This document shows positions 2,468 through 37,349 of a stretch of 64,000 nt of DNA, one piece after another. The position numbers and the translations under genes were made by a program. The notes beneath the pieces are model-generated. The model did not search any database. It was not told where the DNA came from and saw only the letters and a program-made list of their open reading frames with translations. This stretch comes from Thermoanaerobaculia bacterium (GTDB lineage Bacteria > Acidobacteriota > Thermoanaerobaculia > Gp7-AA8): positions 4,365 through 68,364 of the forward strand of contig DATLFB010000033.1 in assembly GCA_035525285.1 (NCBI GenBank). The letters run 5' to 3'. Each line of letters begins with the position of its first letter. Position 1 is the first letter of the stretch.

Positions 2468-2471
2468 GTCG

Positions 2472-2553: not shown

Positions 2554-2559
2554 GCACTC

Positions 2560-2950: not shown

Positions 2951-2998
2951 ACCCCATCGTGTACACTCCCCCGCAATCTGAAACGAAGAGGCCCCCGC

Positions 2999-5101: not shown

Positions 5102-5111
5102 GCCTGTCTCG

Positions 5112-5210
5112 AGCGATGAGCGATGAACGATGAACGATGAACGATGAACGATGAACGATGAATCAGATCATCGATCATCGTTCATCGTTCATCGTTCATC
5201 GTTCATCGTT
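5112..5210. repeat. Heptamer-tandem hairpin, family D: (GATGAAC/CGATGAA)x5 - loop - (TTCATCG)x4
   Basis: gagcgatgaacgatgaacgatgaacgatgaacgatgaatcagatcatcgatcatcgttcatcgttcatcgttcatcgttcatcg. Confidence 0.85.
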
Positions 5211-6273: not shown

Positions 6274-6299
6274 GCGCGGCGCGAATCGTAGCCGGACGG

Positions 6300-6430
6300 A
6301 GGGTAAAAGGTAAAAGGTAAAAGGTAGCCGGGGGAGGGTAAAAGGTAAAAGGTAAAAGGTAAAAGTGGCTCCGCCATTCGGCGCGCTTGCCGTTTTGCCT
6401 TTTACCTTTTTCCTTTTTCCTTTTACCTCT
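6300..6430. repeat. Heptamer-tandem hairpin, family B: (GGTAAAA)x3 + (GGTAAAA)x4 - loop - (TTTTNCC)x5
   Basis: gggtaaaaggtaaaaggtaaaaggtagccgggggagggtaaaaggtaaaaggtaaaaggtaaaag...ttttgccttttacctttttcctttttccttttacc. Confidence 0.85.
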
Positions 6431-6434
6431 CGGC

Positions 6435-7052
6435 CTAAGGCACAAAGGACGCAACGATCACGATCAACAACAACGCCGCAACGCCGGCCGCAATCCAGAG
6501 TGCCTGCACCGTCGGCTTGTGCATGTCCACCGTCTCGCGGCGTTCGCCGAGGAGGTACTGGAGATATTCGACGCGGGGCTTCATCACGCCGATTTTTTCC
6601 TCGACGTTGGGGTAGAGCACTTCGTTGATGCCGGGGACGATGACGACCGGGATCGAGGTCGCGCCGCCCTGGCGGTTGATGTAGTTGGCGAGCGGCACGT
6701 TATGCGGCGAGTCGGTGGAGACGACGAGGCAGTGATAGACGGTCGTCGGCTGCAGCACGGACAACACGGTCTGCACGATCGACTTCGCGCTGTACGTCTG
6801 CACGACCGACTCCGAGGTCTGGCGGAGGATGCGCTCGTTCAGCTCGGGGACCCGCGTGAAGATGAAGATCGTCTCGCCACGGGTCATCGGCAGCTTCTCT
6901 TCGCGGCGGTAAATCACCTCGCCGTACTCGTCCCACCACTCGGGACCCTGCTCGGTCGTGAATCCCTCTTCGCCGAGGCGGTCCATCAGACGAAGAACGG
7001 GATCGCTCCCTTCCGGCGACTCGATCGGCTTCTCAGCCTTGAGCTCTTGCAT
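6435..7052 (-). CDS. Hypothetical protein with a C-terminal transmembrane anchor, co-transcribed with a CheY-like receiver
   Basis: Start taken at MQELKAEKP (ATG 7052). C-terminal helix ALWIAAGVAALLLIVIVASFVP. No recognisable family. Confidence 0.4.
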   Translation of the reverse strand: MQELKAEKPIESPEGSDPVLRLMDRLGEEGFTTEQGPEWWDEYGEVIYRREEKLPMTRGETIFIFTRVPELNERILRQTSESVVQTYSAKSIVQTVLSVLQPTTVYHCLVVSTDSPHNVPLANYINRQGGATSIPVVIVPGINEVLYPNVEEKIGVMKPRVEYLQYLLGERRETVDMHKPTVQALWIAAGVAALLLIVIVASFVP

Positions 7053-7404
7053 ATTTATCGACGAGACGAATGAGATCCGCAAATTCAAAAGGCTTGCCCA
7101 TGTAGTCGTCCGCGCCGCAAACCCGCGCTTTCTCGGCGAGATCGAGGTCGCCGGAGAGGATGACGTACGGGATGTCGCGGGTCTCCGGCGTCGCCTTGAG
7201 CGTGCTGCAGAGCTGCTCGCCGCCCATCCCGCGAATCGTGAGGTCGGCGATGATCATCGCTGGCCTCGCCTCCTTCGCCCGCGCCAGCGCGCTGTTGCCG
7301 TCGGCGACGACGAGCGACTCGTGTCCGTGGCGCTGCAGCACGAGCGAGATCAGACGCGCGACCTGCGGATCGTCTTCGACCACGAGAATCAAAGTGCGCT
7401 CCAT
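7033..7404 (-). CDS. Single-domain response regulator (CheY-like receiver)
   Basis: MERTLILVVEDDPQVARL...MIIADLTIRGMGGEQL...GADDYMGKPF. Confidence 0.8.
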   Translation of the reverse strand: MERTLILVVEDDPQVARLISLVLQRHGHESLVVADGNSALARAKEARPAMIIADLTIRGMGGEQLCSTLKATPETRDIPYVILSGDLDLAEKARVCGADDYMGKPFEFADLIRLVDKYARAQG

Positions 7405-7406
7405 TG

Positions 7407-7463
7407 GAGGGCGGACGTCTCGTCCGCCCTGTTCACCAGGGGCGGACGGGACGTCCGCCCTCC
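7407..7463. repeat. Palindrome family G
   Basis: ggagggcggacgtctcgtccgccc...gggcggacgggacgtccgccctcc. Confidence 0.8.
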
Positions 7464-7939
7464 TAAATCGCGAATCGCACGCGAACGCTCTTGCGGGCGT
7501 GGCCGAGGGCCGCGCCGGCGAGAGCGCCGAAGGCGTTCGAGAGCGTGTCGTTGAGCGATGTGACGAGCGTCGGGAGCGACTGCTGCCAGAGATAGATCAT
7601 CGCCGCGAAGACCAGCGCGGCGAGAAATGTGATCGCGTACGTCCATTTGCGCGACCGCGAGGGCGCGTCGAGCGCGAGAAAGGCGAAGAAGCCCCACGGC
7701 ACGAACAGCAGCACGTTCGCGATCACCGGCATCAGAAACGCGAGCGCGGCGTGCCGCGAGAGAGGGCGATGGGAGCTGAGAAGGCGCGCCAGGAGCTCGC
7801 GGAACGGATGCGCGTCGGCGGCGTACGCTTTCCCGGAGAGAAAATAGATCAGCGCCGCCATCGCGGCGGTCGTCAGGAGCAGGAGCGCGATCGTGACCGG
7901 TTTGCGCACCGCCACGGTGTGAACCTGACGTTTTCCCAT
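7463..7939 (-). CDS. VanZ family membrane protein
   Basis: 158 aa, four predicted TM segments, ...LLFVPWGFFAFLAL... typical of VanZ-like proteins. Confidence 0.65.
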   Translation of the reverse strand: MGKRQVHTVAVRKPVTIALLLLTTAAMAALIYFLSGKAYAADAHPFRELLARLLSSHRPLSRHAALAFLMPVIANVLLFVPWGFFAFLALDAPSRSRKWTYAITFLAALVFAAMIYLWQQSLPTLVTSLNDTLSNAFGALAGAALGHARKSVRVRFAI

Positions 7940-8019
7940 GTCCGGTCATTATCGCGCGCATCGGCGAGGCTCAATTGCCAGTTTCATGCACAGCCGTACA
8001 CGGCTAAACTTTCAATCAC

Positions 8020-10845
8020 TTGACCCGCTCCCCCGCCGCCGTCCTCATCGCCCCCTACCGCGAGATTGCCGCCGCCGTCGCCGCCCGTCTCGCCGCCGCG
8101 CGCGAGGGCTCCGATCCGCTCGACGCGTGGGCCGAAGAGGTGATCGTACCGTCGCGGGGGATGGCGGAGGCAATCTCGAATGAGTTGCTCGTGCGGACGC
8201 CGCGCGGCGTCGCGGGGGTGCAGATCCGCTTTCTGGACGAGCTCGCGCGCGCTCTCGTGAACGATGCGGGCGCGTTTCCGCGCGCAGCGTCGGATGCGGA
8301 GCGCCGGCTGGCGATGCGGATGGCGGTGCGCACGGTGCAGCATCCGATGATGGAGGGCCGCGGCGTGGCGGCGATGCTCGAGCGCTCGTATCGTGATCTG
8401 CGCGACAGCGGTCTCACGCTCGACGGCCTCTCCACGCGCGGCCTGCGCAATCCGCAGCGCACGCAGGCGATCCTCCGCGCATTCGCGGAGTACGAGCGCC
8501 TCATCGCACAGCTCGGCGCGATCGATCCCGCGGATCTCCTCGCGCAGGCGGAGCGCGTCGCGGAACACGCTCGTCCGCAACTGCTCGCCGGCTTCTACGA
8601 CATGACCGGCGCGCAAATGCGCTTCGTTCAGTCGCTGATGCCCCGTATCGCCGCAGTCTGGATTCCCACTGACATGCCGTTCGCCCAGCCGTTCATCGAA
8701 CGTAGCGGCGGGCTTCAGCCCGCCGGAAGCCGGCCGGCTGAAGCCGGCCGCTACGTTTCAGATGCAATGTCCTACGACACGAATCACGCCGAGCTGCGCG
8801 AGGTGTGCGCGCACGTCGCGGAGCTGCTGGAAGGGGGCGAGCAAAGCATCGCCATCACCGCTCGTTCCCTCGACCCCTACGCCATCCATCTCCTCAACCG
8901 CTTCGCCGCCGAGCACGGCTTCGCGACGACGCTGCCCGACGAAATCCCGCTCGCGGCCCATCGCATCGGCCGCGGCGTGCTGACGCTGCTCCGTCTGCGC
9001 GATCGCGGCTTTCCGCGAGGCGAGGTGCTGGAACTGGTGCGCGACGGCCTGCTCGCGCGCACGCGCATCGACGTCGATCGCGCGGACTACGAGACGCGCC
9101 GCGCGCACATCGCCGGCGGCACGAGCGAGGAGCTGGCGCCGCTGCGCAATCGTTCGCGCGCGCTCGACGAGTACATCGCGCTGGTGGCCGAGCTGGAGGA
9201 GTTGACCTCAGGGCTGCCCAGCTACCCGGCTGCCCGGCTACCCAGCACTTCGCCGGGAAGCCGGGAAGCCGGGAAGCCGGGGAGCCCACCGGAGCTCAGC
9301 AGTCTGTTTCGTGTCGAGACCGAGCTCGATCTCGTCGCGGCGGCGAGGCTCGACGAGATCGCGGCGCTGTTCCGGCGGACCGGACAGGCGGGATCGCCTG
9401 TCCTCCACGACCTCATCGACGCGATCGAGCAGGTGTCGCTGACGCAACCGCCGAGCGCGGGACCGAAGGTGTGGGCGGGCGATGTGATGCGCTTTCGCGG
9501 GCGCTCGTTCGCGCACGTGTTCGTCGTGCGGATGCAGGACGATGTGTTCCCGCAGCGGCGCACCGAGGATCCGCTGTTTCCCGATTCCGACCGCCGCGTC
9601 CTCGGGATGCGCGAGATCGGCGACGGGCGGGCGGAGGAGGAGCTGCTGCTGCAGCTCGTGCGCGAGTCCGCGGCGCACGTGCACTTCTCGTTCGCAAGCG
9701 GCGACGGGTTCGGCAAGGTGCTGCGGCCGTCACGGTATCTCCGCGGGCTTGACGTAGCGACCGACTTCAGCCGGTCGAAGGGCGGGCTGAAGCCCGCCCC
9801 TACGTTGTTGCGTCCCCTACAACTGCTCGTGAGGTCGGGAACGCGGTCCGTGTTCGACAGCTACCTCCCGATGCTTGCGGAGACCTTCCGCGCGCGCGTG
9901 CAGTCGGTGACGCCGACGCAGCTCGAGGACTTCGGCGAGTGTCCGCAGAAGTTTTTCTTCAAGCATCTCCTCGGCGTGCAGGAAGTCGAGCATCCCGAGC
10001 GCGAGCTGCAGATCCATCATCGCGAGAAGGGCTCGATCGATCACAAAATCCTCGAGCGCTTCTATCGCGCGCTGTCGTCCGCCGAGCTCGCGAACGCCGC
10101 GGCCGCGCTGCCGCGACTCCCCGACGCGCTCGCCGCGCGGCTCGACACGATCATCGACGAGACCTTCGACGAGCACGAGCAGCAGTTCCCGCCGTTCAAC
10201 CGCACGGTGCGCGGGATCGAGCGGCGCGCGACGAAGCGCATCCTCCGCGAGTTCCTCGCGGGCGACATCGCGGAGCTCACCGCCAGCGAGCTCGAGCCGC
10301 GCCACTTCGAGTACCGCTTCGGCGTCTCGCGCCGCGGCGCGTCGGATCATCCGGAGCCGTTCATCGTCCACGCGGGCGGCGTGCCGGTGCGCGTCGAGGG
10401 GACGATCGATCGCATCGACTACGGCGGGGCCGGCCTGCGCATCGTCGACTACAAGTCGGGAAAAGCAATCCGGCACAACTATCTGCCCGAGAAGATCGAT
10501 CGCGGCGTGCGGCTGCAGCTCGCGCTGTATGCGATGGCCGCCGCGGAGTTCTTCGACAACGCCAACGTCAGCGGCACGATCAAGCCGATCGTGACGGGCG
10601 AGCAGAAATTCAAGTTCGCGTTCGTGCTCGAGGAAAAGCGCGCGACGCTGCTCGAGACGCTCGAGATCTTCCTGCGCGCGATCACCGGCGGCATCTTCCC
10701 CGCGTTCCCGAACGACGAAGACTTCAACTCCTGCAAGTACTGTCCGGTGAGCCACTCGTGCCGCACGCGGCACGATCAGGAGGAGCGCTACGCCGTGCAG
10801 CAGCACCGCGATCCGCGCACGCTCCTCGGCGGAGGCGCGCCGTGA
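8020..10845 (+). CDS. AddB-like PD-(D/E)XK nuclease subunit of a two-subunit helicase-nuclease
   Basis: 941 aa. C-terminal nuclease motif IDRIDYGG..RIVDYKSGKA and Cys staple FGECPQKFF...DFNSCKYCPVSHSC (AddB-type Fe-S). Carries three in-frame palindromic elements (8700-8756, 9210-9290, 9757-9810). Confidence 0.7.
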   Translation: MTRSPAAVLIAPYREIAAAVAARLAAAREGSDPLDAWAEEVIVPSRGMAEAISNELLVRTPRGVAGVQIRFLDELARALVNDAGAFPRAASDAERRLAMRMAVRTVQHPMMEGRGVAAMLERSYRDLRDSGLTLDGLSTRGLRNPQRTQAILRAFAEYERLIAQLGAIDPADLLAQAERVAEHARPQLLAGFYDMTGAQMRFVQSLMPRIAAVWIPTDMPFAQPFIERSGGLQPAGSRPAEAGRYVSDAMSYDTNHAELREVCAHVAELLEGGEQSIAITARSLDPYAIHLLNRFAAEHGFATTLPDEIPLAAHRIGRGVLTLLRLRDRGFPRGEVLELVRDGLLARTRIDVDRADYETRRAHIAGGTSEELAPLRNRSRALDEYIALVAELEELTSGLPSYPAARLPSTSPGSREAGKPGSPPELSSLFRVETELDLVAAARLDEIAALFRRTGQAGSPVLHDLIDAIEQVSLTQPPSAGPKVWAGDVMRFRGRSFAHVFVVRMQDDVFPQRRTEDPLFPDSDRRVLGMREIGDGRAEEELLLQLVRESAAHVHFSFASGDGFGKVLRPSRYLRGLDVATDFSRSKGGLKPAPTLLRPLQLLVRSGTRSVFDSYLPMLAETFRARVQSVTPTQLEDFGECPQKFFFKHLLGVQEVEHPERELQIHHREKGSIDHKILERFYRALSSAELANAAAALPRLPDALAARLDTIIDETFDEHEQQFPPFNRTVRGIERRATKRILREFLAGDIAELTASELEPRHFEYRFGVSRRGASDHPEPFIVHAGGVPVRVEGTIDRIDYGGAGLRIVDYKSGKAIRHNYLPEKIDRGVRLQLALYAMAAAEFFDNANVSGTIKPIVTGEQKFKFAFVLEEKRATLLETLEIFLRAITGGIFPAFPNDEDFNSCKYCPVSHSCRTRHDQEERYAVQQHRDPRTLLGGGAP
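8700..8756. repeat. Palindrome family J (CGTAGCGGCGGGCTTCAGCCCGCCG...CGGCCGGCTGAAGCCGGCCGCTACG), intragenic and in-frame
   Basis: Perfect inverted repeat inside the addB-like CDS (encodes RSGGLQPAGSRPAEAGRY). Copies at 9757 and 54664. Confidence 0.8.
9210..9290. repeat. Family I-like element inside the addB-like CDS, in-frame
   Basis: ctgcccagctacccggctgcccggctacccagcacttcgccgggaagccgggaagccgggaagccgggg encodes LPSYPAARLPSTSPGSREAGKPGSPP. Confidence 0.7.
9757..9810. repeat. Palindrome family J, intragenic
   Basis: gcgaccgacttcagccggtcgaagggcgggctgaagcccgcccctacg within the addB-like CDS. Confidence 0.7.
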
Positions 10846-13800
10846 TGCAGAAGGCATTCGAGTGGGGGACCGGCAAACCTGCCGGTCCGGACAGGCGAGA
10901 TCGCCTGTCCTCCACCTCGCGTCGCAACGTCGTCATCGAAGCGGGCGCGGGAACGGGAAAGACGACGGCGATCGTGGCCGAGGTGCTGAAGCTGATGCTC
11001 GAGCGCGCGGAGCTCGCGCCGGAGCGCATCGTGCTGATGACGTTCACGGAGAAGGCCGCGGGCGAGATCGCGGATCGGATCCGGACAGCGCTCGAGGAGC
11101 TCTCCCAGTCTCCGGCTCTCACCTGGCCCATCGACTCCGCGCATCCCCTCCTCACGATCGACGACCCCGACTCCGCGCGCCGCGCGATCGCGCATCATCT
11201 CGCCAACATCGACGCGCTGCGCTCGCAGACGATCCACTCGTTCTGCCAGTCGCTGCTGCGCACCTTCCCGATCGAGGCGGGGCTCGATCCGCAGTTCAAG
11301 ATCATCGAAGGCTTCGAGCGCTCGCTGCTCTACGGGCAGCTGTACGACGCGTGGATCGATCAGGAGACGCGCGTCCATCCGACGGAGGAGGGAGTGCGCG
11401 AGTGGGAGCTGCTCTTCGCGCACGCCGGCTATCTCTTCCAGATCCGCGATCTGATCCTCGGCATGATCGATCGCCGCGATCTGCTCGAGGAGACGGGCTA
11501 CGACTTCGGCACGCTCGAAGAAGTCGAAGAGAAGCTGATCGATGCACTCGTCGCGATCCGCCGCTGCGGCGATACGGTGGGCGACGAGCAGGCGCAGCGA
11601 ATCTTCGCGTACGTCCGCGAGACCGATCCGCCGGCGCCCGGCGACATCGATCGCTGGCTCGAGTATCTCCATCCGATCGCCGCTTCGATCCGCGATGCGA
11701 ATCTGCCGCGCCACGGAATCCTCAAGGAGGCGCTGAAGATCCTGCGCGGCAAGGAGTCGAAGGGGCGCTCGGTCTACGACTATCTCGTGCGCCACCGTGC
11801 GGCAATCGCGCTGCTCGCGCTGACGCGGCGTTTCCTCGCCTACCTCGACGAGGAAAAGCGCCGCCTCGGCGTCGTCGACTTCGACGATCTGCTGCTCCGC
11901 ACGCTCGCGCTGCTCGACGACGCGGGCGTGCTGGCCCGCGCGCGCGCGCAGTTCGATTTCATCTTCGTCGACGAGTTTCAGGACACCGACCGCACGCAGG
12001 CGCGAATCATCGACCGCCTCGCGCGCGACGCGTCGGGCACATACGTCGCGGGCAAGACGATCGTGGTCGGCGATCCGAAACAGTCGATCTACGGATTCCG
12101 CCGCGCCGATCCGGAGACGTATTACCGGATGACGGAAGGTCTCGTGGCCGGCGGAGCGGAGCGGCGCGTGATCGCGGATCAGTACCGCAGCGATCCGCCG
12201 CTGCTCGACGCCGTGAACGCGCTCTTCGCACGGCTTTTCCCCGACACGCTGCAACACGACCCGAACGTGTTCCGCCCGCGTTACACGCCGCTGCGCGCGG
12301 CGCGCGAGTCGTCGCGCCGCGAGCTCGATGCGCGGATCACGCTGCTGCACGCGCAGCACGACGACGCGGCGGATAAGTTCATCGTCGAGGCGGAGGCGAT
12401 CGCGAAGTGGATCAAGGCGCGCGCGGAAGGCGATCTGCGGCGCTTCGCGATCCTCTTCCGGCGCCTGACGAAGCTCGACGATTATCTCGACACGTTCGAT
12501 CGCCACGGCATCGACTACGTGCTCCCGCCGACGCGCATGTTTCTCGACCGCCGCGCGCCGGTCGATCTGCTGGCGGTACTGCGAGCGATCGCCTACCCGT
12601 TCGATCACGGCGCGCAGATCTCGGCGGCAAGGACGCCGTACTTTGCGCTGACGGATGAGGAGATCGCGGAAGGGGTGCTGCGTGCTGCGTGCAGCGTGCA
12701 GGAGGGCGACGTGACGCAGCACGCAGCACGCAGCACGCAGCACCCGTGGACGGCATTCGTCGCCGCCATCGCCCGCTTCCGCGACCACGCCCGCCATCTC
12801 ACCGCCTCCCAGCTCATCGACCTCGTCATCACCACGACCGGCATCGAGCGCGTGTACGACGCCGCGGCGGACGGCGTGCGCCATCTGCGGCATCTCGAGC
12901 ACGTGCGCGCGATCGCGTTCGAGTACGACCAGCGCACGGGCGGATCGGTCGGACAATTCGTCGGGGAGATCTCGCAGCGGCGCGGCGAGCCGGACGAGAT
13001 CGAGCCGAGCCTGATCGACGAGTCGAAGAACGCGGTGCGGATCATGTCCGTGCACGCGGCAAAGGGGCTCGAGTTCGAGACGGTCATCCTCCCCGACCTC
13101 GCCGTGCAGCCGCCGTCGAACGACACGCAACTCTTCACCGTCGAGGAGCCGCGCAGCCTCGTGCTCGCGGGGCGCGTGGAGTCGATCTCGGCGAACTTCC
13201 GCTTCGCGAACGGCGAGAAACTGAAGCGCATCAACGCGCGGCGCGAGGAGGCGGAGACGCGGCGGCTGTTCTACGTCGGCGTCACGCGCGCGAAGACGGA
13301 CGTCGTGTTCGTCTGCAATCTCGCCGAGGAGACGAAGAACGTTGGATTCCTGCGCTGCCTGTGCGAGGGGCTGGGGATCGAGAAGAACGCGCTCACGGGA
13401 ATGTTCGTCGATGGACGCACGGTCCATGCGACAGAGATTGGGGATGTTGCGTTCGAGCGGGTGTGGAGTGCGGCAACGCCAGTTGCCGCTGTCGTAGGAA
13501 AGCGGCGACTGGCGTCGCCGCACTCCACACTCGAAGCGGAGCTCGCGACAGGCGGGATCGTCCCGTGCGAGATCGCCGCGCCCTCCCCTGTCACCGCGCG
13601 TCTCGCGACGAGCGAAGTGGCCGCGCGCCGCGCCGGCTCCCGCAATCGCGCGGCGGGCATCCTCCTGCATCGCGTCCTCGAGCGCTGGGACGGACGTGCC
13701 GATACCGAGCCGCTGCTGAAGCAGCTCGCGGTCGAGACCGCGGCGGAGGAGGAGGCGGTCGCGCGCGTACGCCGGCGGCTGGCCACGGTCGCGCGCTCCG

Positions 13801-16458: not shown

Positions 16459-16504
16459 CGGAGAAGCGTACCGCGGAGCGGGCCATCCTGTACGCTAAGA
16501 CCGG

Positions 16505-16831
16505 ATGGACAAACCGCGAATCTTCCTGGGCTCGTCAGGAAAGCAGGAGAAACTGCTGCAGGCGCTGACACGCGGTCTCGAAGACGTCGCGCACGTAGAA
16601 GCGCCGCAACTGGACGGGACGGGAGAGATCCGAGTCGAATCCGCCGATCGCGCGGACGGGTACTTCACGACTCATTCGGACACTCACCCCAAAGTCAACA
16701 CAAGGACGTCCGGCGTCTATCTGCGCGCCGATCCGGAGGACTTGAACATCCTGGATGGACGCGGCAACCGGCAACGCGCGGAGTTGATTGCGGAGCGTCT
16801 GAGAGACTGGAAGTCGATCACGAACGTGTGA
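16505..16831 (+). CDS. Hypothetical protein
   Basis: 108-aa ORF with no recognisable motif. Lies at the edge of the lower-GC islet. Weak call. Confidence 0.25.
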   Translation: MDKPRIFLGSSGKQEKLLQALTRGLEDVAHVEAPQLDGTGEIRVESADRADGYFTTHSDTHPKVNTRTSGVYLRADPEDLNILDGRGNRQRAELIAERLRDWKSITNV

Positions 16832-16894
16832 GATCGGTTAGTGAGACGCCGCGCTTTCGGCGACGTTCTCGGCTCGTCGCGTTCGACTGCGACA

Positions 16895-17188
16895 CTAACG
16901 AGCCAGCTTGCGCCAATAACCAGGGCGCCTGCTTTCGTGCGCGACCGCGACGACGTTTACTGTGTTGCTCTCTACGAAATAGACAAGAGAGTATGGATAC
17001 GTCGGGAAAACGTACCGCTGCGTTCCGGCGATGTAGCGCGGCCACCGGTGCGGAGCCTCTACGATGAGATCAACGGCATGATCCAGCTCGCGTAGGAAGC
17101 CGGCTTCGGCCACTTCACTCTGATCCCGGTACCACTTGCGGGCCTCTTCGACTTCGTCGTCAGCCGCCTCGAAGAAATGTGGCTGCAT
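16895..17188 (-). CDS. Type II toxin, RelE/ParE family
   Basis: 97 aa; ...RWPRYIAGTQRYVFPTYPYSLVYFVESNTVNVVAVAHESRRPGYW, typical ParE/RelE C-terminus. ATGA overlap with the upstream antitoxin. Confidence 0.7.
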   Translation of the reverse strand: MQPHFFEAADDEVEEARKWYRDQSEVAEAGFLRELDHAVDLIVEAPHRWPRYIAGTQRYVFPTYPYSLVYFVESNTVNVVAVAHESRRPGYWRKLAR

Positions 17189-17418
17189 TAACGATCGAGG
17201 CGATGCAAACGAGCTCGGACTTCCGCCCAGGGAATGGTCTTTACTCTGCCCGCTCGGTAGTCTTCCATGCGTCGCTGAATTTCAGCGGCCCAAGCCTCCT
17301 CGACTCCTTCATCCCGCACCTCTTCGATGCTCTCGAGGAGGAGGCCTGCGAGCTCGGCACGCTCGCCGGGGGGTAGCTCTGCTGCCTTGGCGTAAAGTTC
17401 CTGGACGTCGCGCGTCAT
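17188..17418 (-). CDS. Antitoxin (putative addiction-module component, ParD-like)
   Basis: 76 aa acidic protein, ...ELPPGERAELAGLLLESIEE...AWAAEIQRRMEDYRAG, immediately upstream of and overlapping the ParE-like toxin. Confidence 0.6.
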   Translation of the reverse strand: MTRDVQELYAKAAELPPGERAELAGLLLESIEEVRDEGVEEAWAAEIQRRMEDYRAGRVKTIPWAEVRARLHRLDR

Positions 17419-17702
17419 GCGGCGATTCTAGCGCGAAACCGTTCGAGCGATCTCTGCGCATGCGTTGCCGAGGGTGCTCGTGGGCGCCGAGCTGCTGACA
17501 ATCAGGTCTCTGCGCTGCGGCGGGCGTCACGCGCGTGGAGCAATGCGGCGCGGCGGCTGCCGCGCCACGAATGCTTTTGACGGCGGCGCGATGTGCCGCC
17601 GACGTGCCGCCGTCCAGCTACGATGTTCCCGAGCCGGCTCGGCCGGCGGGCCGGACAGCAGCCCGCCCGTCGGCTCCTGTGTGGAGTTAAGCCGCGGCGG
17701 CC

Positions 17703-18407
17703 CTACACTGGTGATGAGAAGTGCTCGAGCAGGAAAGGCTCCAAAAAGCCGAGCAGACTCGAAACGTCCGCTTCCGCGATCCTTGACCAGTCCGCATGCA
17801 TCGCAGCATTCCTCAATTTGACGTAGGACGCAACAATTGGCCCCTGTGCGCCGCCTAAAATCCCCTTTGATTTGAGCGCGTTCATGACGGCGTCCAACGT
17901 CTTGTTGCCGACCGCCAGATCGAGTTCTAGCGCCTTGCGCTTTAGAGCGTCTTCTAGCGCCGCCGACGCTAATACCGCGGCCACATCCTTGTATCCGGCT
18001 TTCAACTGCGTCCTGGCAAGCGCCACAAGATCGCCAATAACTACACCAGCGGCTTCGGTCGCGATGCTGTTGATCAAACCCAGTTCAATTTCTTCGGCCG
18101 TATTGCGAAGCACCGCATCCAACGATTCCGCGAACGACTGTATGCGTTTGTTTGTATAACCTAAAGGTGTCGAGAGCTTATGCATCTCCATGAGTGCCTT
18201 GATCTGTGGCGACGTCGAGCCGTATAGACTAGTCGCGATATTCAGTGCCCCGGCGAAAACAGCGTCCACTTCGGTGCGCGCGTCTGCTCTCCCAAGCTCG
18301 TGCGGGTTTGCAACTCGGCTTCGCAATTTCTGGATGCGCGTGAGGTATGCCTCACGGCGCTGCGATACATTCATGGGCGGAGAATATAGCACTTCACTCC
18401 TGTCCAA
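17703..18407 (-). CDS. HEPN-like (DUF4145-type) protein
   Basis: 234 aa in a lower-GC stretch. C-terminal ...KLRNAAMHADW fits the HEPN Rx4-6H motif. Confidence 0.4.
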   Translation of the reverse strand: MDRSEVLYSPPMNVSQRREAYLTRIQKLRSRVANPHELGRADARTEVDAVFAGALNIATSLYGSTSPQIKALMEMHKLSTPLGYTNKRIQSFAESLDAVLRNTAEEIELGLINSIATEAAGVVIGDLVALARTQLKAGYKDVAAVLASAALEDALKRKALELDLAVGNKTLDAVMNALKSKGILGGAQGPIVASYVKLRNAAMHADWSRIAEADVSSLLGFLEPFLLEHFSSPV

Positions 18408-18992
18408 ATTAGCTTTTGAGAAACAGCGCTCAGATGGGCGTCGCCCGCAAGAGAACGTCGCTGAGTCTCGTTTCCGGCCACGAAACCAGCCATGGACGCC
18501 ACTTTCCGAGGCTCTATCAGGCAGGACGGACGCGGTCCAGCCGGGCTGGCAATTTGGACAGCAGCCAAGGAAGGAAGGGGTCTCATCTCGCGAACGTTAC
18601 CGGAGCGTCGTGTTTTCAATAAGTTAGGAGCGCGATTTTGTCGATTCACAGCTAATTTGGACAGCAGTGATAGCACTTACGTCGGCCGACAAGGCCATTG
18701 GAGGTATAAATGAAACAGCCGACCAGACGGCTCAAAACTCGTCGGCCCAACAGCTTTTTCGTTCCACATCCCCATCCACCCTCGTAATCGGCAGATATTT
18801 TCTGTATAGGAGGCGCATGTGCCGCGCCACCCGGCCGTGTGATCGCCGGACGTCTTCTGTGGCTTGTGTCGACAGAGTATTTACGTTCTCGACCCGTCGG
18901 ACATGCGCGTCGGATTTGCGGCCGCCGCAGCGCTTCCGCGAGCGAACGACAATCATTTTTCGGCGCCGTCTGAAGCGCAAAACCGCGCGCGC

Positions 18993-19247
18993 CTACGGCG
19001 AGAGCCGCTCGATGATCCAATCCTTCGGCTCGCGCAATCGATACACGATGCGGTCGTGCAGGCGATCGGCTCTCCCCTGCCAGAACTCGACCGGGATCAC
19101 GCGGTAGCCACCCCAGTGCGGGGGGCGTGGGATCTGGCGGTCGCGGTACGTCGCTTCGAGCTCCGCGAAGCGGAGCTCGAGATCGACGCGGCCGTGGATG
19201 ACCGCGCTCTGGTTCGAGGCCCAGGCATTATCGGAGTCGTGTTTCAA
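18993..19247 (-). pseudogene. Duplicated 3' fragment of pdxH (last ~84 codons)
   Basis: Translation [77 protein letters not shown] is ~95% identical to the C-terminus of intact pdxH (19711..19960). The DNA forms a direct repeat of about 250 bp. Confidence 0.75.
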
Positions 19248-19429
19248 GGCTCTGGAATTGAAAGTGCGCGACAGATCCTGCGAGCGAGATGGTTCGGAGT
19301 TTCCTGGTGCCGCGGTACGGCTTCGATATGACCGGTCTGCGGATTACACCACAGTTCGTGCTCTTTCCCCTGGCGCTTGAGATAGCAGCCGTGCCGCCGC
19401 AGATGACGAAGGAGCTCGCGTTGTTTCAC
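19244..19429 (-). CDS. hicA: HicA family toxin (YcfA-like mRNA interferase)
   Basis: 61 aa; [41 protein letters not shown]. Confidence 0.75.
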
Positions 19430-19641
19430 TCAACAACAACCGTCTCGCAAATCGCCGTTTCGGGAACACCACGAAGCGCGTCTTCGCGCCGGTCTTCAAG
19501 AATCAGCGCAATCGCTTCGGCAAGATTGGCGCGCGCTTCGCCGGTCGTTCGACCCTGCCCATTCGCGCCCGGGATCTCCGGGGAATAGGCGATGAACCAG
19601 TCTTCGTCGCGCTCGATGATTGCAGTGAATTCGTTGTGCAT
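19426..19641 (-). CDS. hicB: HicB family antitoxin (UPF0150)
   Basis: 71 aa; MHNEFTAIIERDEDWFIAYSPEIPGANGQGRTTGEARANLAEAIALILE. Overlaps hicA by 4 nt. Confidence 0.7.
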   Translation of the reverse strand: MHNEFTAIIERDEDWFIAYSPEIPGANGQGRTTGEARANLAEAIALILEDRREDALRGVPETAICETVVVE

Positions 19642-19710
19642 GGAGCTTCGATTCTACTCCGACTTCGAGGGTGACGATCGGCGACGGTAGCGCGGCGCGT
19701 CGCGCCGCCC

Positions 19711-20322
19711 TTACGGCGAAAGCCGCTCGATGATCCAGTCCTTCGGCTCGCGCAGGCGATACACGATGCGATCGTGCAGGCGATCGGCTCTCCCCTGCCA
19801 GAACTCGAACTCGACCGGGATCACGCGGTAGCCGCCCCAGTGCGGGGGGCGTGGGATCTGGCGGTCGCGGTACGTCGCTTCGAGCTCCGCGAAGCGGAGC
19901 TCGAGGTCGCCGCGGCCGTGGATGACCGCGCTCTGGTTCGAGGCCCAGGCGCCGAGCTGGCTGCCGCGCGGGCGGGTGGCGAAGTAGGCGTCGGATTCCT
20001 GTTCGGTCGTCTTCACCACCGCGCCTTCGATGCGCACCTGGCGGTCGAGGACCGGCCAGAAGAAACAGAGCGACAGGCGGGGGTTCTCGGTGATCTGCAC
20101 GCCCTTGGGGCTGTGATAGTTCGTGTAGAAGACGAATCCGTGCTCGTCGAAGTCCTTGAGCAGGCAGACGCGCGAGCGGACGATGCCGTCGGCGCCGCAC
20201 GTGGAGACCGTCATCGCTTCCGGCAGCTCGCGGATCTTCTGTCTGGCTTCCTCGAACCAGTGCGCGAACTGCGCGAACGGGCTTTTCTCGAGATCGCTCT
20301 CGAGCAACGCGGTTGTATTCAC
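19711..20322 (-). CDS. pdxH: Pyridoxamine 5'-phosphate oxidase
   Basis: ...VSTCGADGIVRSRVCLLKDFDEHGFVFYTNYHSPKG...RIEG...[15 protein letters not shown]... Confidence 0.85.
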   Translation of the reverse strand: MNTTALLESDLEKSPFAQFAHWFEEARQKIRELPEAMTVSTCGADGIVRSRVCLLKDFDEHGFVFYTNYHSPKGVQITENPRLSLCFFWPVLDRQVRIEGAVVKTTEQESDAYFATRPRGSQLGAWASNQSAVIHGRGDLELRFAELEATYRDRQIPRPPHWGGYRVIPVEFEFWQGRADRLHDRIVYRLREPKDWIIERLSP

Positions 20323-21002
20323 GAAACACTCCTCTCACGCAGCAGGCGCTCGATCTTGCGGAGGACACGCAGCGACTCGGCGTGCGGCATGAGCGCGGCC
20401 GCCGGGTCGAGCGCGACCCAGGCGAGCTCGTTCGACTCGCCGCGGTCGATGGTGATGGCATCGGGGCTCGACGTGCGTGCGAGATATCGCACGTCGAAGT
20501 GATCGTGGTCCGGCTCATGGCGCGCCGCGGGGATTTTGTGGATGTCGAGATCGAAGATGGCCGTGGCGCTGGCGCGGATTGAGGATTGAGGATTGAGGAT
20601 GGCGCTGGCGCGGATTGAGGATTGAGGATTGAGGATAGCGCTGGCGCGGATTGAGGATTGAGGATTGAGGATTGAGGAAGGAGGGAGCAGCTCGAGATCG
20701 GTGAGGCCCGACTCCTCGGCGCCCTCGCGGAGCGCGGCGGCATCGGGCGTTTCATCGCCTTCGACGTGCCCGCCCATCTGCAGCCAGCGATCGAGGCGGC
20801 GGTGATGATGGAGGAGCAGGCGGCCGCCGTCATCGATGATGAAGCAGCTCGCGGTGACGTGTCCCGGCGCGAAGTGCGCGCGCGAGAAGGGCTCGGCGGC
20901 GTCGCGCACGAGATCGAGCATCGCATGGCGATGCCCCGCCTCGAGCTCGTCGGCGGGCTCGTAGGCTCGGAGCTCTTCGAATAGTCGCGCGGCGCGGGAC
21001 AT
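20319..21002 (-). CDS. NUDIX hydrolase with an internal 3 x 13-aa tandem repeat
   Basis: Start at MSRAARLFEEL (ATG 21002). Nudix box GGHVEGDETPDAAALREGAEESGL. The ORF-track extension to 22256 is antisense to the kinase gene. Confidence 0.8.
   Translation of the reverse strand: MSRAARLFEELRAYEPADELEAGHRHAMLDLVRDAAEPFSRAHFAPGHVTASCFIIDDGGRLLLHHHRRLDRWLQMGGHVEGDETPDAAALREGAEESGLTDLELLPPSSILNPQSSIRASAILNPQSSIRASAILNPQSSIRASATAIFDLDIHKIPAARHEPDHDHFDVRYLARTSSPDAITIDRGESNELAWVALDPAAALMPHAESLRVLRKIERLLRERSVS
20571..20690. repeat. Direct tandem repeat, 3 x 39 bp (ggcgctggcgcggattgaggattgaggattgaggat), inside the NUDIX CDS
   Basis: In-frame. Encodes (ILNPQSSIRASA)x3 between the Nudix box and the C-terminal region. 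The unit itself contains (GATTGAG)x3. Confidence 0.85.
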
Positions 21003-21436
21003 CACTTCGATGGGAACCAATGATAGAGGAAGAAGTACACCAGCACGCCGGTGATCGAAACGTACATCCAGAGCGGGAAGGTCCAGCGCGCGACGCGGCG
21101 GTGCTGCGGGACGCGCATCTTCAGGCCGTTCCAGACGCTGAGGATGGCCAGCGGAACGATGATCACGGCGAGGATCGTGTGCGAGGTGAGGATGGTCAGG
21201 TAGAGCGTGCGCATCGCACCCGTTCCCGCGAAGCGCGTGACCACGCCGCCCTTGAGGTAGTGGTAGGTGACGTAGCACGCGAGGAACGCGAGCGATGTGA
21301 AGCAGGCCGCGAGCATGAAGCGGCGGTGTGCCTGAATGCGTTTCTTTCGAATCAACACGTACGCGGTCAGCAGCCAGACGCCGCTGAGGGCGTTGAGCGA
21401 GGCGTTGAGCGGGGGGAAGAGGTCGAGCAGGTGCAT
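21002..21436 (-). CDS. DUF420 family membrane protein
   Basis: 144 aa, 4 TM; ...HRRFMLAACFTSLAFLACYVTYHY... Stop overlaps the NUDIX start. Confidence 0.6.
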   Translation of the reverse strand: MHLLDLFPPLNASLNALSGVWLLTAYVLIRKKRIQAHRRFMLAACFTSLAFLACYVTYHYLKGGVVTRFAGTGAMRTLYLTILTSHTILAVIIVPLAILSVWNGLKMRVPQHRRVARWTFPLWMYVSITGVLVYFFLYHWFPSK

Positions 21437-21467
21437 GAAAATGACGCGCTATCATACGCGGACGCGG

Positions 21468-23129
21468 ATGAAATGCCCCGATTGCGGAGTCGAGCTCGAG
21501 GACGGCTCGCTCGTCTGCCCTCAGTGCGCCACGCAGGTCGCGACCGAGCCGCGGACGCTGCGCACGCCCTCTCCATCGAACGAGCCCTCCGCCGTTCCCT
21601 CGCTTCCCGGCTACGACATCGAGTCGGTCCTCGGCGAGGGCGGAATGGGCGTGGTCGTTCTCGCACGCGAGCGCGCGCTCGACCGGCGCGTAGCGATCAA
21701 GTTCATGGCCACACGCGAGCACGATGCCGGTGCGGTCGAGCGCTTCCTGCGCGAGGCACGCGTCGCGGCGACGATCGAGCATCCACACGTCGTGCGCATC
21801 TACAGCTACGGAGAGAGCTCGGGACGGCCGTACATCGTGATGCAGTACGTGGAGGGAGAGACGCTCGCACGGCGCATCCGGCGCCGGGGAGCGCTTCCGA
21901 TCGATCAGGCGTTGCGCATCACGCGGCAAACGGCCGAGGCGCTGCGCGCGGCCTGGGAGAAGAACGTCGTCCATCGTGACGTGAAGCCGTCGAACATCCT
22001 GCTCGACGCACGCGGACAAGCACACGTGGCCGACTTCGGACTGGCCAAGCCGCTCGAGGCCGGCGACAGCAGCCTGACCGTGAGCGGCTCCTTCGTCGGG
22101 ACGCCGTACTACATCTCGCCGGAACAGGCCGAAGGGAAGTCTCTCGATTTTCGCGCCGACCTCTACTCCCTCGGCATCATCCTGTACGAGATGCTCACCG
22201 GCGAGCGGCCGTTCGACGGGAGCACGCCCGTCGCGATCGTCGCGAAGCATCTGCACGAACCGTTTCCCGAGGTGCGGCGATTGCGGTCCGACCTTCCGCG
22301 CGAGGTCGAGATGCTACTCGCGTCGATGACCGCGAAGTCGCCCGACGCGCGTCCGTATTCGCACGGCGCGCTTCTCAAGATGCTCGACGATGCGGCGCGA
22401 GCTCGCGCGTTGCGTAGCAGGTACCGATTCCGCGCCGGAGCCGCGGCAGCGGTTGCAATCTGTGTGTTGCTCGCCGGCGCCGCGTTTGTTTTCCGCGCGA
22501 CGAGGCCCGCGCCGCCGGCCGCGGAGCCGAGGCCAACGATCGCGGCAATCCCGGCAAGCACCGTGGACGTGATCGAGGTTGCACCGACGACCACTCCTCT
22601 CCCGTCACCGCCGCGTCTTCTGTGGCCGGCGGACATCGGCATGGTCGATCCGCCGAATCTCAATCTCGACTGGGCGCTGCTTCGCGATGCCGCCGCATAC
22701 CGCGTGCAGGTTGCGGGCGACGGCGCGTTCCAGGAGATCATCGCCGATGTTCGTCCGGGAGTGCCGCCCGCCGTCATTCCGGTGAAAGGAGGGCGTGTCT
22801 ATCACTGGCGCGTCGCGTCGATCGATTCAGCGGGACGGCAGGGGGAGTATTCGCCGTCGCGCCGCGCCGTGGTCACTGCCGCGGCGCCGATTCTGCTCAC
22901 GCCGGACGGTGCCGTGTTTCGCGAGACTGTGACTCTCGAATGGGAGCCGGTGCCGGAGGCCGTGGCATACGTGGTGCGCGTCGACGACGGATTCGAGCGG
23001 CGGACGATGGATACGCGTCTGAAAGCCGCAGTGACCGGGGGCGGCGTCCACCGCTGGCAGGTCGCTTCGGTCGATCGGCGGGACATCGTCGGCACGTTCT
23101 CCAGGCGCCGCCGGTTCGAGATCAAGTGA
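21468..23129 (+). CDS. Ser/Thr protein kinase with N-terminal zinc ribbon, one TM helix and an extracytoplasmic repeat domain
   Basis: MKCPDCGVELEDGSLVCPQCAT; kinase motifs VAIKFM...HRDVKPSNILLD...DFGLAK...GTPYYISPE; TM AAAAVAICVLLAGAAFVF; C-terminal ~200 aa with repeated W..V..D-type beta-rich segments. Confidence 0.8.
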   Translation: MKCPDCGVELEDGSLVCPQCATQVATEPRTLRTPSPSNEPSAVPSLPGYDIESVLGEGGMGVVVLARERALDRRVAIKFMATREHDAGAVERFLREARVAATIEHPHVVRIYSYGESSGRPYIVMQYVEGETLARRIRRRGALPIDQALRITRQTAEALRAAWEKNVVHRDVKPSNILLDARGQAHVADFGLAKPLEAGDSSLTVSGSFVGTPYYISPEQAEGKSLDFRADLYSLGIILYEMLTGERPFDGSTPVAIVAKHLHEPFPEVRRLRSDLPREVEMLLASMTAKSPDARPYSHGALLKMLDDAARARALRSRYRFRAGAAAAVAICVLLAGAAFVFRATRPAPPAAEPRPTIAAIPASTVDVIEVAPTTTPLPSPPRLLWPADIGMVDPPNLNLDWALLRDAAAYRVQVAGDGAFQEIIADVRPGVPPAVIPVKGGRVYHWRVASIDSAGRQGEYSPSRRAVVTAAAPILLTPDGAVFRETVTLEWEPVPEAVAYVVRVDDGFERRTMDTRLKAAVTGGGVHRWQVASVDRRDIVGTFSRRRRFEIK

Positions 23130-31097: not shown

Positions 31098-34000
31098 TTA
31101 TTTGTGGAGGACAGGCAATCCTGCCTGTCGCGCTGGGACAGGCAGGATTGCCTGTCCTCCACGGTCGCCGGTTTGCACCGCCGGCGCGGGTGGTTGTCGA
31201 GGTGCGGGAACGGGCGCTGGACCCTCGGAGCCCGGACGCGCGGCGCGCATCTGATCGAGTCCGATGCTCCAGATGTAATCGCGGAGATAGTTCGTGAGCG
31301 CGACGGCGTCGGCCATCGTCTTGCGCAGCGCTTCGTCGCTCTCGAAGTACGGCCGCAGCACGGCGCGGTGGCCGGCGAACTGCGGCGTGTCGATCGCGTT
31401 CGCCAGCGGCGACTGGAAGCCGCCCGTCTGCGGATCGCGCGGGAAGTTCGCGGGCATGCGCGTGTCCGGGACCATCTCGCCCGGACGTCGGATCCAGTCG
31501 GCGATCCAGTCGTGGCGCAGGCGCAGTTTCGAGAGCGTGAGGTTCGGCGCGAGCGACGTGGTGTCGGCGACGTTGGGCACGGGCGGATTCGCGGGATCGA
31601 CCGGCGCCGTGGAGTGGCACTGCGCGCAGCGCAGCATCGTGTAGACCTCGCGGCCGATGGCGACGTTCTGCTGCGAGGGCGTCGCGAAGCGATGCGTGTC
31701 GAACTGCGGCTCGTCGCCTTCCGCGGCGAATCCGGCCACGAGCGTGGCCGCTTCCTGGTCGGTGAAGCCGAACGTCGGCATGCGCACGCTCAGCCACGGG
31801 CGGATCTTCATCACCGTCGGATCCTTCAGGAAGTTGAAGAGCCACGGCGACTGCGAGCGCTCGCCCTGCGGCGTCAGATCGGGCGGGAGAAAGTTCGTGT
31901 CGGTGATGAGGGCCGCGATCGCGCGGCCGTTGCGATTGACGACGTGGCATCCGCGGCAGTTGCGCTGCGAAATGATCTTGCGTCCTTCCTCCACCGCGCG
32001 CATGCCCGGATCGCGCGCGGCGAGACGGTTCTCCGCGACCTTCTCCTTCGTCAACCCGAGGATGACCGAGGAGACGAGCTGCGCTTCATCGGGCGACAGG
32101 TTGAAGTTCGGCATCTTCAGCTTGTCGTTGTAGGGCTTGGTACGGCGGTCGTCGTACACGCGCGGGCTGCGGACCTTGTTGTAGATCCACGACGGGACGT
32201 TGTGGAGGACGTACTCCTTCTTCCCGTCCTCGTGCTTGTAGTCGTGCGTGTGTGTGGATGTGCCGAAGAAGCCGAAGTCGAAGAGGTGCAGCGTCTTCGA
32301 GCCTTCGGTGGTGAGCTCGGTGCCGATCGGCTTGAGGCCGTCGAAGCCTTTGATGTCGTGGCAGGAGTAGCAGCCGTACTTTTCGATGGACCGCTGCCCG
32401 AGGTAGACGAGCTGCTCGCGATCGCTCATCGCTTTCAGCTTCGCGTCCGCGTCCACATCGGACATCGTGTTGATGAGGTAGCCCTTCGCCAGATCGTGCA
32501 CGGCCTTCCGCAAGGGCGGACGAATCGGCTCCTGCATGAAGCGCTGCTTCTGCAGCGACATCAGGTAGGCGGTGATGTCGGATGCCTCCTGATCGCTGAG
32601 GCGGAGGCTCGGCATCGGCGCGAACGGATCGTAGGCCTTCGGATTCTTCACCCAGTTGAAGATCCAGTTCGGATTCGTCTTCGAGCCGACGCCGGTGAGG
32701 TTGAATCCGAAGTGGCGCTCGAGCGGGAAGTCGTCGCGCTTCGCGACACGCACGGCGCCGGTCTTCGCGTCTTTGATCGTGTCCTGCGCAATGTGGCAGC
32801 CCATGCAGCCGATCGTATCGACGAGCTGCTTGCCGCGCGCCGCGTCACCGCCCGACGCCGGGGCGGACCAGTTGCGATGCGTGGATTTGTCAAAGAGGTA
32901 CGCGACGATCGAGTGGACCTCGGCATCCTGATACCGGACGTTCTGCGCGCGCTCGGCCTCCGGTACCGCCGGTCCGGTCATGTTGCGCTGGTAGAAGAAC
33001 GACGGCATGCGCGTGGTCGGACGGAAGTGCGTGGGGTTCGCGATCCAGCGGAAGGTCCAGGCGGGATTCGTTTTCTCGGCGATGCCTTCGAGCGAGGGGC
33101 CGGGCTTCTGCAGGTCGGTGAAGCGCCAGTTGTCGATCTTGTGGCAGGCATGGCAGCCGTACAACTCGACCATGTGCGCGGCTTTGTTGATCCGCTCGCC
33201 GTCGCGCACTTCCATCTGCGTCGCATGGCACTTCAGACATCCCGCCTCGAAATGCTGCCGCGGATACATCGGCGTCTCGAGGAACGGATTGACCTGATAG
33301 CCCCAGTTGCGCTTTTCGTAGTCGCCTTTCGTCGGGAAGAACGGCGAGGTCTTCTCCCAGCGCATCTCCATGCGCCGGCTCATCGGCGTGTGGCCCGCGC
33401 GTCCGAACTCGGTCGCGCGATCCTGCCCGCGGTGGCAAACCGTGCAGCCGTACTCGAGCAGCGGATGCGGCGAGGAGGAGCCGACGAAGACGTCGAGCTT
33501 CGGATGGGTACGGAAGGGATTCATCAATTCCGTCTTCGCGTCGACGATGCGCCTGAGCTCCGCGACGCGCTCCTCGGTCTCCGCCCGCCGCGCGGGAAGG
33601 ACGAGATTCCTGTCGAGCTGCGTCTGCAGTTGCTCCGCGAGCCGCTCCGCTTCCCGCTTCGACTCGAAGCCGGGGCGATCGATCGCGCGATGACAGGTCA
33701 TGCAGCGGTCGACGCGGGGCACCGACATGTAGTTCATGTCGATGAAGAGATCGCTGAGGACGACCTGATCGATTTTCAGGGTCGGGTTGATGAAGTCGAG
33801 CATCGGCGCGTTGAGCAGCAGGTTCGGCACGGATGCGACGGCGACGTTGCGCAGCTGCTTGTTCAGCAGATCGCTGCCGGCGGTGAGCTCTTTCCTGCGG
33901 TTCTCCAGTTCCTTGATGCGGGTGAGGAACTCGTCGACGCGCGCGCGGGCGGCGTCGCGACTGCGCGTGACGTCCTGCAGGACGAGATTGAGGCGGCCCA

Positions 34001-34463: not shown

Positions 34464-34487
34464 TCTGCGGTAGCCTCACGGGTGGTG

Positions 34488-34593
34488 ATAAAGGCAGAAG
34501 GCAGAAGGCAGAAGGCAGAAGTGAGAACCGTGACACGGCGCGTGACGCGTGCCTTTCTTACTTCTGCCTTCTGCCTTCTGCCTTCTGCCTTCA
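34488..34593. repeat. Heptamer-tandem hairpin, family C: (GAAGGCA)x4 - loop - (TGCCTTC)x4
   Basis: aaaggcagaaggcagaaggcagaaggcagaagtgagaaccgtgacacggcgcgtgacgcgtgcctttcttacttctgccttctgccttctgccttca. Confidence 0.85.
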
Positions 34594-37318: not shown

Positions 37319-37349
37319 CTATCGGTGAAAACGGGAAGGTAGTCAAGCC

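Follow-up and report, generated by a model that had tools for sequence, protein, structure and literature searches.

A duplicated pdxH 3′ end around a predicted hicBA toxin–antitoxin pair in a Thermoanaerobaculia bacterium: a probable footprint of recombination between related lineages

The 3′ end of pdxH, the gene for pyridoxamine 5′-phosphate oxidase, occurs twice in a 64-kb stretch of DNA from a Thermoanaerobaculia bacterium (contig DATLFB010000033.1, positions 4,365 to 68,364; the whole stretch is called the window here), with a predicted HicAB toxin–antitoxin pair between the two copies. The copies are direct and collinear (blastn E=2.8e-105), both are in frame with pdxH and their starts are 724 bp apart; no third copy of the tail, nor any farther attachment (att) partner, was found across the 64-kb window. 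The features of the locus are listed below along the minus strand, with lengths in amino acids (aa) or nucleotides (nt) and with related loci referred to by an L number.

19711..20322, minus strand: intact pdxH, pyridoxamine 5′-phosphate oxidase, 203 aa, GTG start and TAA stop (Pfam)
19711..19950, minus strand: repeat copy B, the in-gene pdxH 3′ end, 79 codons plus TAA, 240 nt (alignment)
19689..19709, no strand assigned: GC-rich inverted repeat right after the pdxH stop, GCGGCGCG/CGCGCCGC (read from the sequence)
19651..19656, minus strand: TAGAAT box (−10-like), 9 nt upstream of the hicB ATG (conserved in relatives)
19426..19641, minus strand: hicB, predicted antitoxin, 71 aa, a short form without DNA-binding domain (homologues)
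19244..19429, minus strand: hicA, predicted toxin, 61 aa (Pfam HicA_toxin, PF07927, 33.8 bits, cut-off 27)
19227..19243, minus strand: 17-nt spacer from the hicA stop to the novel joint at 19226/19227 (resembles the L166 spacer, ACGACT..GAAT)
18993..19226, minus strand: repeat copy A, the orphan pdxH 3′ end, 77 codons plus TAG, 234 nt (alignment)
18690..18992, minus strand: putative ancestral pdxH-downstream flank, now behind the orphan (homologous to L169 1862-2170)

The intact pdxH has full-length matches to the Pfam families PNPOx_N and PNP_phzG_C (88.5 and 73.7 bits, respectively). It is collinear with the gene in more than 45 related loci, and its own 3′ end (copy B) is of canonical length, with the motif EFEFWQG, like L169 and other relatives. 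Copy A differs from copy B by nine substitutions and one 6-nt deletion, which is in frame and shortens EFEFWQG to EFWQG; copy A carries one G-to-V change, and the longest block identical between the two copies is 71 nt. Homology is confined to the stretch between codon A125/W126 and the stop codon. The original prediction, read from the letters of the window, had described near-identical copies of the pdxH end on either side of hicAB, and the duplication proved real, with an identity of 225/234 (96.2%) that lies above the 80% line drawn for its refutation. The limits given for the two copies were 10-24 nt off those measured here (18993-19226 and 19711-19950), and the length of about 84 codons had to be corrected to the 77 and 79 listed above: 84 is the length in aa of a mechanically called open reading frame (ORF) at 18993..19247 (Pfam PNP_phzG_C, 65.3 bits), the TTG start of which overlaps the hicA TGA and the first seven codons of which (LKHDSDN) are non-pdxH. 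This ORF is a pseudogene fragment and not a second pdxH, and copy A is a redundant, displaced pdxH 3′ end.

The insert between the copies is 484 bp long and consists of the GC-rich hairpin, the TAGAAT box, hicB, hicA and the 17-nt spacer, so both genes lie where they had been predicted. HicB scored 19.4 bits against Pfam HicB_lk_antitox (PF15919), under the cut-off of 27, and had no NCBIfam match; its 8000 homologues reach identities of up to 93%, JGI or NCBI assigns several of them to the HicB family by name, and thousands of close ones are found in soil Acidobacteria. The two genes overlap by 4 nt, and their pairing is kept in L161, L164, L165 and L166, in which the hicA adjoining hicB encodes a protein 87-98% identical to that of the window. 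The insert genes are thus predicted to form a HicAB type II toxin–antitoxin pair. Upstream of hicB, the sequence GTAGAAT stands at the same position in L161, L163, L165 and L166, and GTACAAT in L164; a consensus scan made no call of a full sigma-70 promoter at hicB, and searches of Rfam families and scans for promoters and terminators around the locus gave nothing meaningful. The inverted repeat at 19689..19709 is not homologous to the sequence after the orphan stop or after the L169 stop, and could possibly be a terminator or a structural element. Exact-sequence look-ups of the window hicB, hicA and pdxH, and of P0121, returned no record.

A conserved gene of 60-63 aa without a family match was also observed, divergent from hicB, in L161 (4687-4869, minus strand), L163 (4683-4874, minus strand) and L165 (1-60), and is absent beside hicB in the window, L164 and L166. 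Some hicBA cassettes could include it as a third component.

A related genome without the duplication is represented by L169, a 2.3-kb contig of JGI sample 3300050235, which was also used as the third sequence for polarising substitutions. Its PdxH is 96% identical in aa to that of the window, and it has one pdxH tail, no second tail and no hicBA. The DUF420-NUDIX-pdxH region of L169 is ~95-99% identical in nt to window 21424-19711, save for a 69-nt difference in a repeat within the NUDIX gene. The ~300 nt that follow the L169 stop, up to the ATG of its next gene, correspond to the window flank at 18992-18690 with ~60-65% identity and conserved islands. Since pdxH of L169 runs directly into the homologue of the flank of the orphan, the orphan and its flank are read as the ancestral pdxH/flank junction. 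The single tail of L169, followed by a flank of the orphan type, agrees with the original prediction that the copy beside hicA is the orphan one.

The nature of the differences between the copies was then considered. They comprise seven synonymous, one non-synonymous and one stop-to-stop substitution (dN/dS ~0.04; binomial P=2.6e-4 versus neutral decay), and the neutral expectation for an unconstrained pseudogene is ~75% non-synonymous changes. When polarised with L169, seven of the nine substitutions (five synonymous, one non-synonymous and one stop-to-stop) fall on the orphan branch, together with the 6-nt deletion, and two fall on the branch of the in-gene copy. The in-gene tail is 96.7% identical to the L169 tail, like the rest of pdxH, and the orphan 94.4%. 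As the changes are nearly all synonymous, and a drifting pseudogene would gain mostly non-synonymous ones, this pattern indicates that the orphan diverged inside a working pdxH of another lineage and not by decay in place; the 6-nt deletion and the G-to-V change are the only differences suggestive of later decay. Divergence of both copies under purifying selection therefore argues for an exchange between lineages rather than a duplication in place.

Self-comparison of all fetched loci revealed the same anatomy, namely an intact gene, an insert and an orphan 3′ tail that runs to the stop codon, in four more independent cases besides the window:

L001/L085, pdxH: 27-nt repeat; 247-bp insert with a heptamer-repeat hairpin element
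L127, pdxH of an unrelated organism: 199-nt repeat, 94.5% identical (601-799, 1463-1661); insert with a RelE/HTH pair
L099, neighbouring PNPOx-like gene: 399-nt repeat, 94% identical (7106-7510, 11054-11719); 3.5-kb insert with a Doc toxin and an attC-like site
L163, Xer-like recombinase gene: 105-nt repeat, 93% identical (4329-4432, 5280-5384); insert with hicB and a 63-aa gene

These four have dN/dS values of 0-0.22, the copies in L099, L127 and L163 differ mainly at synonymous sites, and toxin or antitoxin genes are present in three of the four inserts. The repeats of L151 and L029 were checked as further tail duplications and are not. No common junction motif or core was detected when the five tail-duplication junctions were compared, so that no att-like core, for which the original prediction proposed a check at the repeat boundaries, was recovered, and the breakpoints in pdxH differ, being at codon 126 in the window, ~140 in L127 and 195 in L001. 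As the junctions have no common motif and the three pdxH breakpoints differ, no site-specific system with a fixed core is supported. A literature search on toxin–antitoxin loci flanked by direct repeats gave nothing specific to gene-tail duplications.

The contexts in which relatives of the hicBA pair are found bear on the other end of the insert. The hicBA pair of L161/L168 (93% and 87% identical in aa) lies within an array of at least ten 205-nt attC-like repeats, among cassettes for ParE, PIN/MazE, RES and other small proteins; the L168 array extends over 461-11720, and the L161 repeats have GCCTAAC ... GTTAGGC boxes, which fit the RYYYAAC ... GTTRRRY form of integron sites, and a long-range stem with 14 compensatory pairs. 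Neither the window nor the 10 kb on each side of hicB in L168 gave a call of an integron integrase. An attC-like repeat starts 16 nt after hicA in L161 and 21 nt after it in L166, where repeats occupy 810-1018 and 1355-1564. In L164, hicBA is placed tightly behind an AhpC-like gene with no repeat, and in L163 hicB is beside the Xer-like gene. Conservation between these contexts is limited to the coding region and ~25 nt of promoter, and comparison of the insert and orphan flanks with 168 loci matched only an 18-nt stretch of the hicB promoter (L165) and the L169 flank.

In the window, no covariance-model match revealed an attC-like repeat attached to hicBA; hicA is followed by 17 nt and then by the pdxH tail, so that the joint falls where an attC-like repeat would begin. 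Four nucleotides, GCCT, are common to the first box of the repeat (GCCTAAC) and the pdxH breakpoint (GCCTGGG), a comparison made with the repeats of relatives and not with those of the actual parent. This suggests, without being proof, a break at the foot of a repeat hairpin that was joined by microhomology. One member of the repeat family is present nearby:

17489..17697, minus strand: relic of a 205-nt attC-like repeat after the DUF4145 gene (collinear blastn match to the L161 repeats, E=5e-6)

This relic is 1.5 kb from hicBA. Its score of 118 bits with the attC-like covariance model is not independent, as the relic is in the training set, and its long-range stem was not recovered on folding. 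A short copy of the same 205-nt family is found inside the L099 insert (9681-9790, minus strand).

Taken together, the locus is probably the footprint of recombination between two related lineages of a soil acidobacterium, through a homology-anchored capture that involved no dedicated recombinase. One lineage would have carried pdxH closely trailed by hicBA, as a self-contained cassette that includes a −10-like box, and the other the ancestral arrangement of pdxH and a non-coding flank, as in L169. The exchange would have been anchored by homology in pdxH or in neighbouring conserved genes, and at the other end a non-homologous joint would have been formed at 19226/19227, between the position 17 nt after hicA and codon 126 of the pdxH of the other lineage; no homology is seen on the insert side of this joint. 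Two routes could give the observed topology, a linear one with one homologous and one illegitimate crossover, and a circular one with a single crossover of a circularised fragment, and the outcome of either would be an intact pdxH, then hicBA, then a redundant 3′ tail. In E. coli, single crossovers of circular molecules with part of lacZ gave gene-end duplications of 109-950 bp (PMC3240628), and orphan 3′ fragments in type VI secretion system (T6SS) and Rhs loci have been attributed, as a proposal, to the linear route (PMC5361080).

The type of recombination and the donor side are inferred from the sequences compared. An L169-like donor with pdxH-hicBA could have overwritten a divergent recipient pdxH down to codon 126, or a divergent donor could have supplied a fragment, from codon 126 onwards, that was joined behind hicA of an L169-like recipient. 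Either side may be the incoming DNA, since the in-gene tail is as near to L169 as the rest of pdxH is, and the orphan with its flank is more divergent. The original prediction that the incoming DNA comprised hicBA and a replacement tail is thus compatible with the locus, but the mirror-image event, with an incoming truncated tail and flank, is equally compatible. The cupin gene across the spacer, the nearest relative of which is 91% identical in aa, was uninformative on polarity.

Several points weigh against a homology-anchored capture. A parental pdxH-hicBA arrangement without the orphan was not found among ~47 related pdxH loci or seven hicB contexts, a shallow sampling, and the nearest hicBA copies are elsewhere, in attC-like arrays (L161/L168, L166), after the AhpC-like gene (L164) or beside the Xer-like gene (L163). 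The in-gene tail is nearer to L169 than the orphan is (96.7% versus 94.4%, with ~60-65% for the flank), which leaves either side as the possible incomer; the putative microhomology at the joint amounts to only 4 nt, GCCT; and the window is apparently metagenome-assembled, its PdxH and cupin being 100% identical to proteins (P0121 and P0242) that carry the name ‘MAG TPA’. ‘Addiction’ to hicBA may help the 234-bp repeats to persist, as recombination between the repeats would delete the antitoxin gene together with the toxin gene. This idea derives from the 71-nt length of the longest identical block and from the finding that three of the other four inserts include a toxin or antitoxin gene.

Among the alternatives, site-specific integration would make the hicBA segment a remnant or a trans-mobilised miniature of an element with an att site that supplies a replacement pdxH 3′ end. 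The topology of prophage e14 in icd, with a proximal copy in an intact gene, a distal orphan (icdC), homology up to the stop and mostly synonymous differences, matches that of the window, and integrase-less derivatives flanked by attachment sites exist, the cis-mobilisable elements. Against this, no integrase or transposase was found in the 484 bp that separate the repeats or within ~10 kb by Pfam scans of the neighbouring ORFs, and a tblastn query with an Xer-type recombinase had no match in the window. The five junctions have no common core, with three different breakpoints in pdxH; the same anatomy is found in two other genes; and what hicBA keeps in its other contexts, its coding region and some 25 nt of promoter, includes no pdxH-like attachment sequence. 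Of the two mechanisms offered by the original prediction, recombinational capture fits these data and site-specific integration, which we consider improbable, is unsupported.

Still less probable is an integron-type event, in which an integron integrase, working in trans, would have inserted hicBA as an attC-bounded cassette into a secondary site within pdxH. The position of its closest relatives as cassettes in attC-like arrays, with 14 covarying stem pairs, speaks for such an origin, as do the joint 17 nt after hicA, close to the 16 nt and 21 nt at which the repeat begins in L161 and L166, and the relic 1.5 kb away. When an integron integrase inserts a cassette, the crossover falls at the far (GTT) end of attC, and the target DNA is left unduplicated. 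Further points against such an event are that no attC-like sequence is attached to hicBA, that the relic does not fold into the long-range stem, and that no integron integrase was found in the window or, in L168, in the 10 kb on each side of hicB.

That the pdxH tail was duplicated locally in tandem, with hicBA inserted or retained between the copies and the orphan drifting since, is highly improbable. The copies are direct, near each other and 96% identical, and the 6-nt deletion and the G-to-V change of the orphan resemble decay; against it stand the seven synonymous changes among eight coding differences, with five synonymous versus one non-synonymous on the orphan branch. In addition, it is the orphan that is contiguous with the ancestral flank of the L169 type, and the in-gene copy that is followed by unrelated sequence, and homology stops exactly at the stop codon, which is unexpected for a random endpoint. 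Least credible of all is an assembly artefact that merged two strain variants of the pdxH region into a chimeric metagenome contig. In its favour, the window matches proteins of metagenome-assembled origin and the copies look like alleles of two lineages. Against it, the sequence at the joint of the hicA spacer with codon 126 is unique and has to be spanned by reads, differences between the copies recur at least every 71 nt, so that long k-mers should separate them, and the same anatomy is present in four other independent assemblies from different projects.

The wider neighbourhood places the locus in a hotspot of variation immediately behind pdxH, a core gene. The order DUF420-(NUDIX)-pdxH-[variable spacer of 0 bp to 5 kb]-(cupin)-low-molecular-weight (LMW) phosphatase is conserved in more than 45 related loci, none of which has hicBA downstream of pdxH. 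The spacer of the window is 3.25 kb long (16459-19710) and contains hicBA, the orphan, a low-GC non-coding stretch, the DUF4145 gene, the attC-like relic and a second toxin–antitoxin pair. By Pfam the neighbours are housekeeping genes, for a UvrD-like helicase-nuclease, MarC, LMW phosphatase, cupin, NUDIX, DUF420, kinase, SCO1 and cytochrome oxidase. The second pair is as follows:

16895..17418, minus strand: Unstab_antitox and ParE toxin–antitoxin pair (PF09720, 65.2 bits; PF05016, 34.6 bits)

This pair has its own TAGAAT box, 7 nt before the ATG, so that in both toxin–antitoxin pairs of the spacer the box is placed 7-9 nt before the start codon (17419-17435 and 19642-19656, minus strand). 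This placement suggests that both cassettes may produce leaderless or near-leaderless transcripts.

Other observations were made along the window. The non-coding stretch at 18408-18992 has a GC content of 53-59% versus 65-70% around it, and its islands nearest the orphan are common to L169. The motif AATTTGGACAG occurs three times upstream of the DUF4145 gene (18394-18414, 18551-18569 and 18650-18670), and two of these form a 21-nt inverted repeat. In the NUDIX gene (20319..21002, minus strand), three in-frame tandem units of 36 nt were found at 20564-20684, with GGATTGA heptamers and the repeated peptide ILNPQSSIRASA; as L169 is without 69 nt at this repeat, a recent expansion or contraction is indicated. 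A Ser/Thr kinase gene of 597 aa (21336-23129, plus strand) lies between DUF420 and the SCO1-like gene, and in L169 the SCO1-like gene is directly followed by DUF420, which makes the kinase another presence/absence difference between close relatives.

Two families of repeated structures were also recognised. Hairpins of ~100 nt, in which four to five direct heptamers, (GAAGGCA)n or (GAACGAT)n, face inverted copies, occur at 34480-34600, 47085-47190 and 51690-51795, and at 37345-37440 and 42275-42370; an element of the same design with (GAACGCA)n (L001 6666-6816) is the 247-bp insert between pdxH and the 27-nt tail of L001. A perfect palindrome of ~60 nt, GTGGAGGACAGGCAATCCTGCCTGTC ... GACAGGCAGGATTGCCTGTCCTCCAC, has at least five intergenic copies (10862-10915, 31104-31162, 40206-40269, 50891-50951 and 55970-56023) and resembles a repetitive extragenic palindromic (REP) or miniature element.

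A homology-anchored capture would be an ordinary mechanism and its product a known kind of recombination footprint, which is clean and recurrent here and is documented by an empty site and a selection test. It provides a natural example, with an empty-site control, of a core-gene 3′ end duplicated by the capture of accessory DNA without a dedicated recombinase, in which the almost exclusively synonymous divergence of the tails shows exchange between distinct lineages. The footprint recurs in four other loci, of which three carry toxin or antitoxin genes, so that in uncultured soil bacteria the capture of cassettes could be recognised and dated by means of such orphan tails, which could also address whether addiction modules stabilise duplications that would otherwise be deleted. 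The locus is of modest interest alone, and of somewhat more as part of a recurrent pattern.

A broader proposal, which we hold to be doubtful, is that toxin–antitoxin cassettes of attC-type arrays escape to ordinary chromosomal sites of soil Acidobacteria through illegitimate recombination, anchored by homology, with a break at the base of the attC hairpin, and that the resulting core-gene-tail repeats, inherently unstable, survive mainly because their deletion removes the antitoxin. If this were true, orphan tails beside toxin–antitoxin pairs would be a general and datable marker of cassette capture. Less likely than this cassette escape, the 84-aa orphan ORF may be expressed, as its TTG start overlaps the hicA stop, and would then yield a peptide of the PdxH dimerisation domain.

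The locus can be compared with several known systems. In E. coli, e14 is inserted in icd, the proximal copy completes the gene, and the C-terminal fragment icdC remains as a pseudogene beyond the insert (PMC13626634); the icd and icdC copies have mostly conservative or synonymous differences, and recombination between them restores a single chimeric gene (PMC13626634). The likeness to the window lies in the insertion at the 3′ end of a housekeeping gene, with the proximal copy in the intact gene and the orphan beyond. However, e14 is 15 kb long, has a site-specific recombination system of its own and uses a fixed attachment site, whereas the window insert is 484 bp long and carries only hicBA, and neither a recombinase nor a common core was found when both were looked for at the window locus. 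Chromosomal integrons and integrase-less attC clusters resemble the arrays in which hicBA relatives accompany ParE, PIN/MazE and RES cassettes, whereas the window hicBA has no attC-like repeat, has pdxH sequence on both sides and has one decayed relic in its spacer; toxin–antitoxin cassettes are reported to limit the loss of cassettes from chromosomal integrons (PMC13108822). In the effector-immunity arrays of Rhs, contact-dependent inhibition (CDI) and T6SS loci, a new gene end with a small protective gene likewise displaces the resident 3′ end and leaves an orphan downstream, but the displaced ends there are divergent toxin domains, so that function changes, whereas here the PdxH C-terminus is nearly the same and the cargo is an unrelated toxin–antitoxin pair. 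A Campbell-type single crossover, or homology-facilitated illegitimate recombination, likewise has one homologous and one non-homologous boundary. Known cases are laboratory events in E. coli and in naturally competent species, whereas the present one is read from a natural genome, and the 234-bp duplication, the unique joint and the copies of two lineages all fit such an event.

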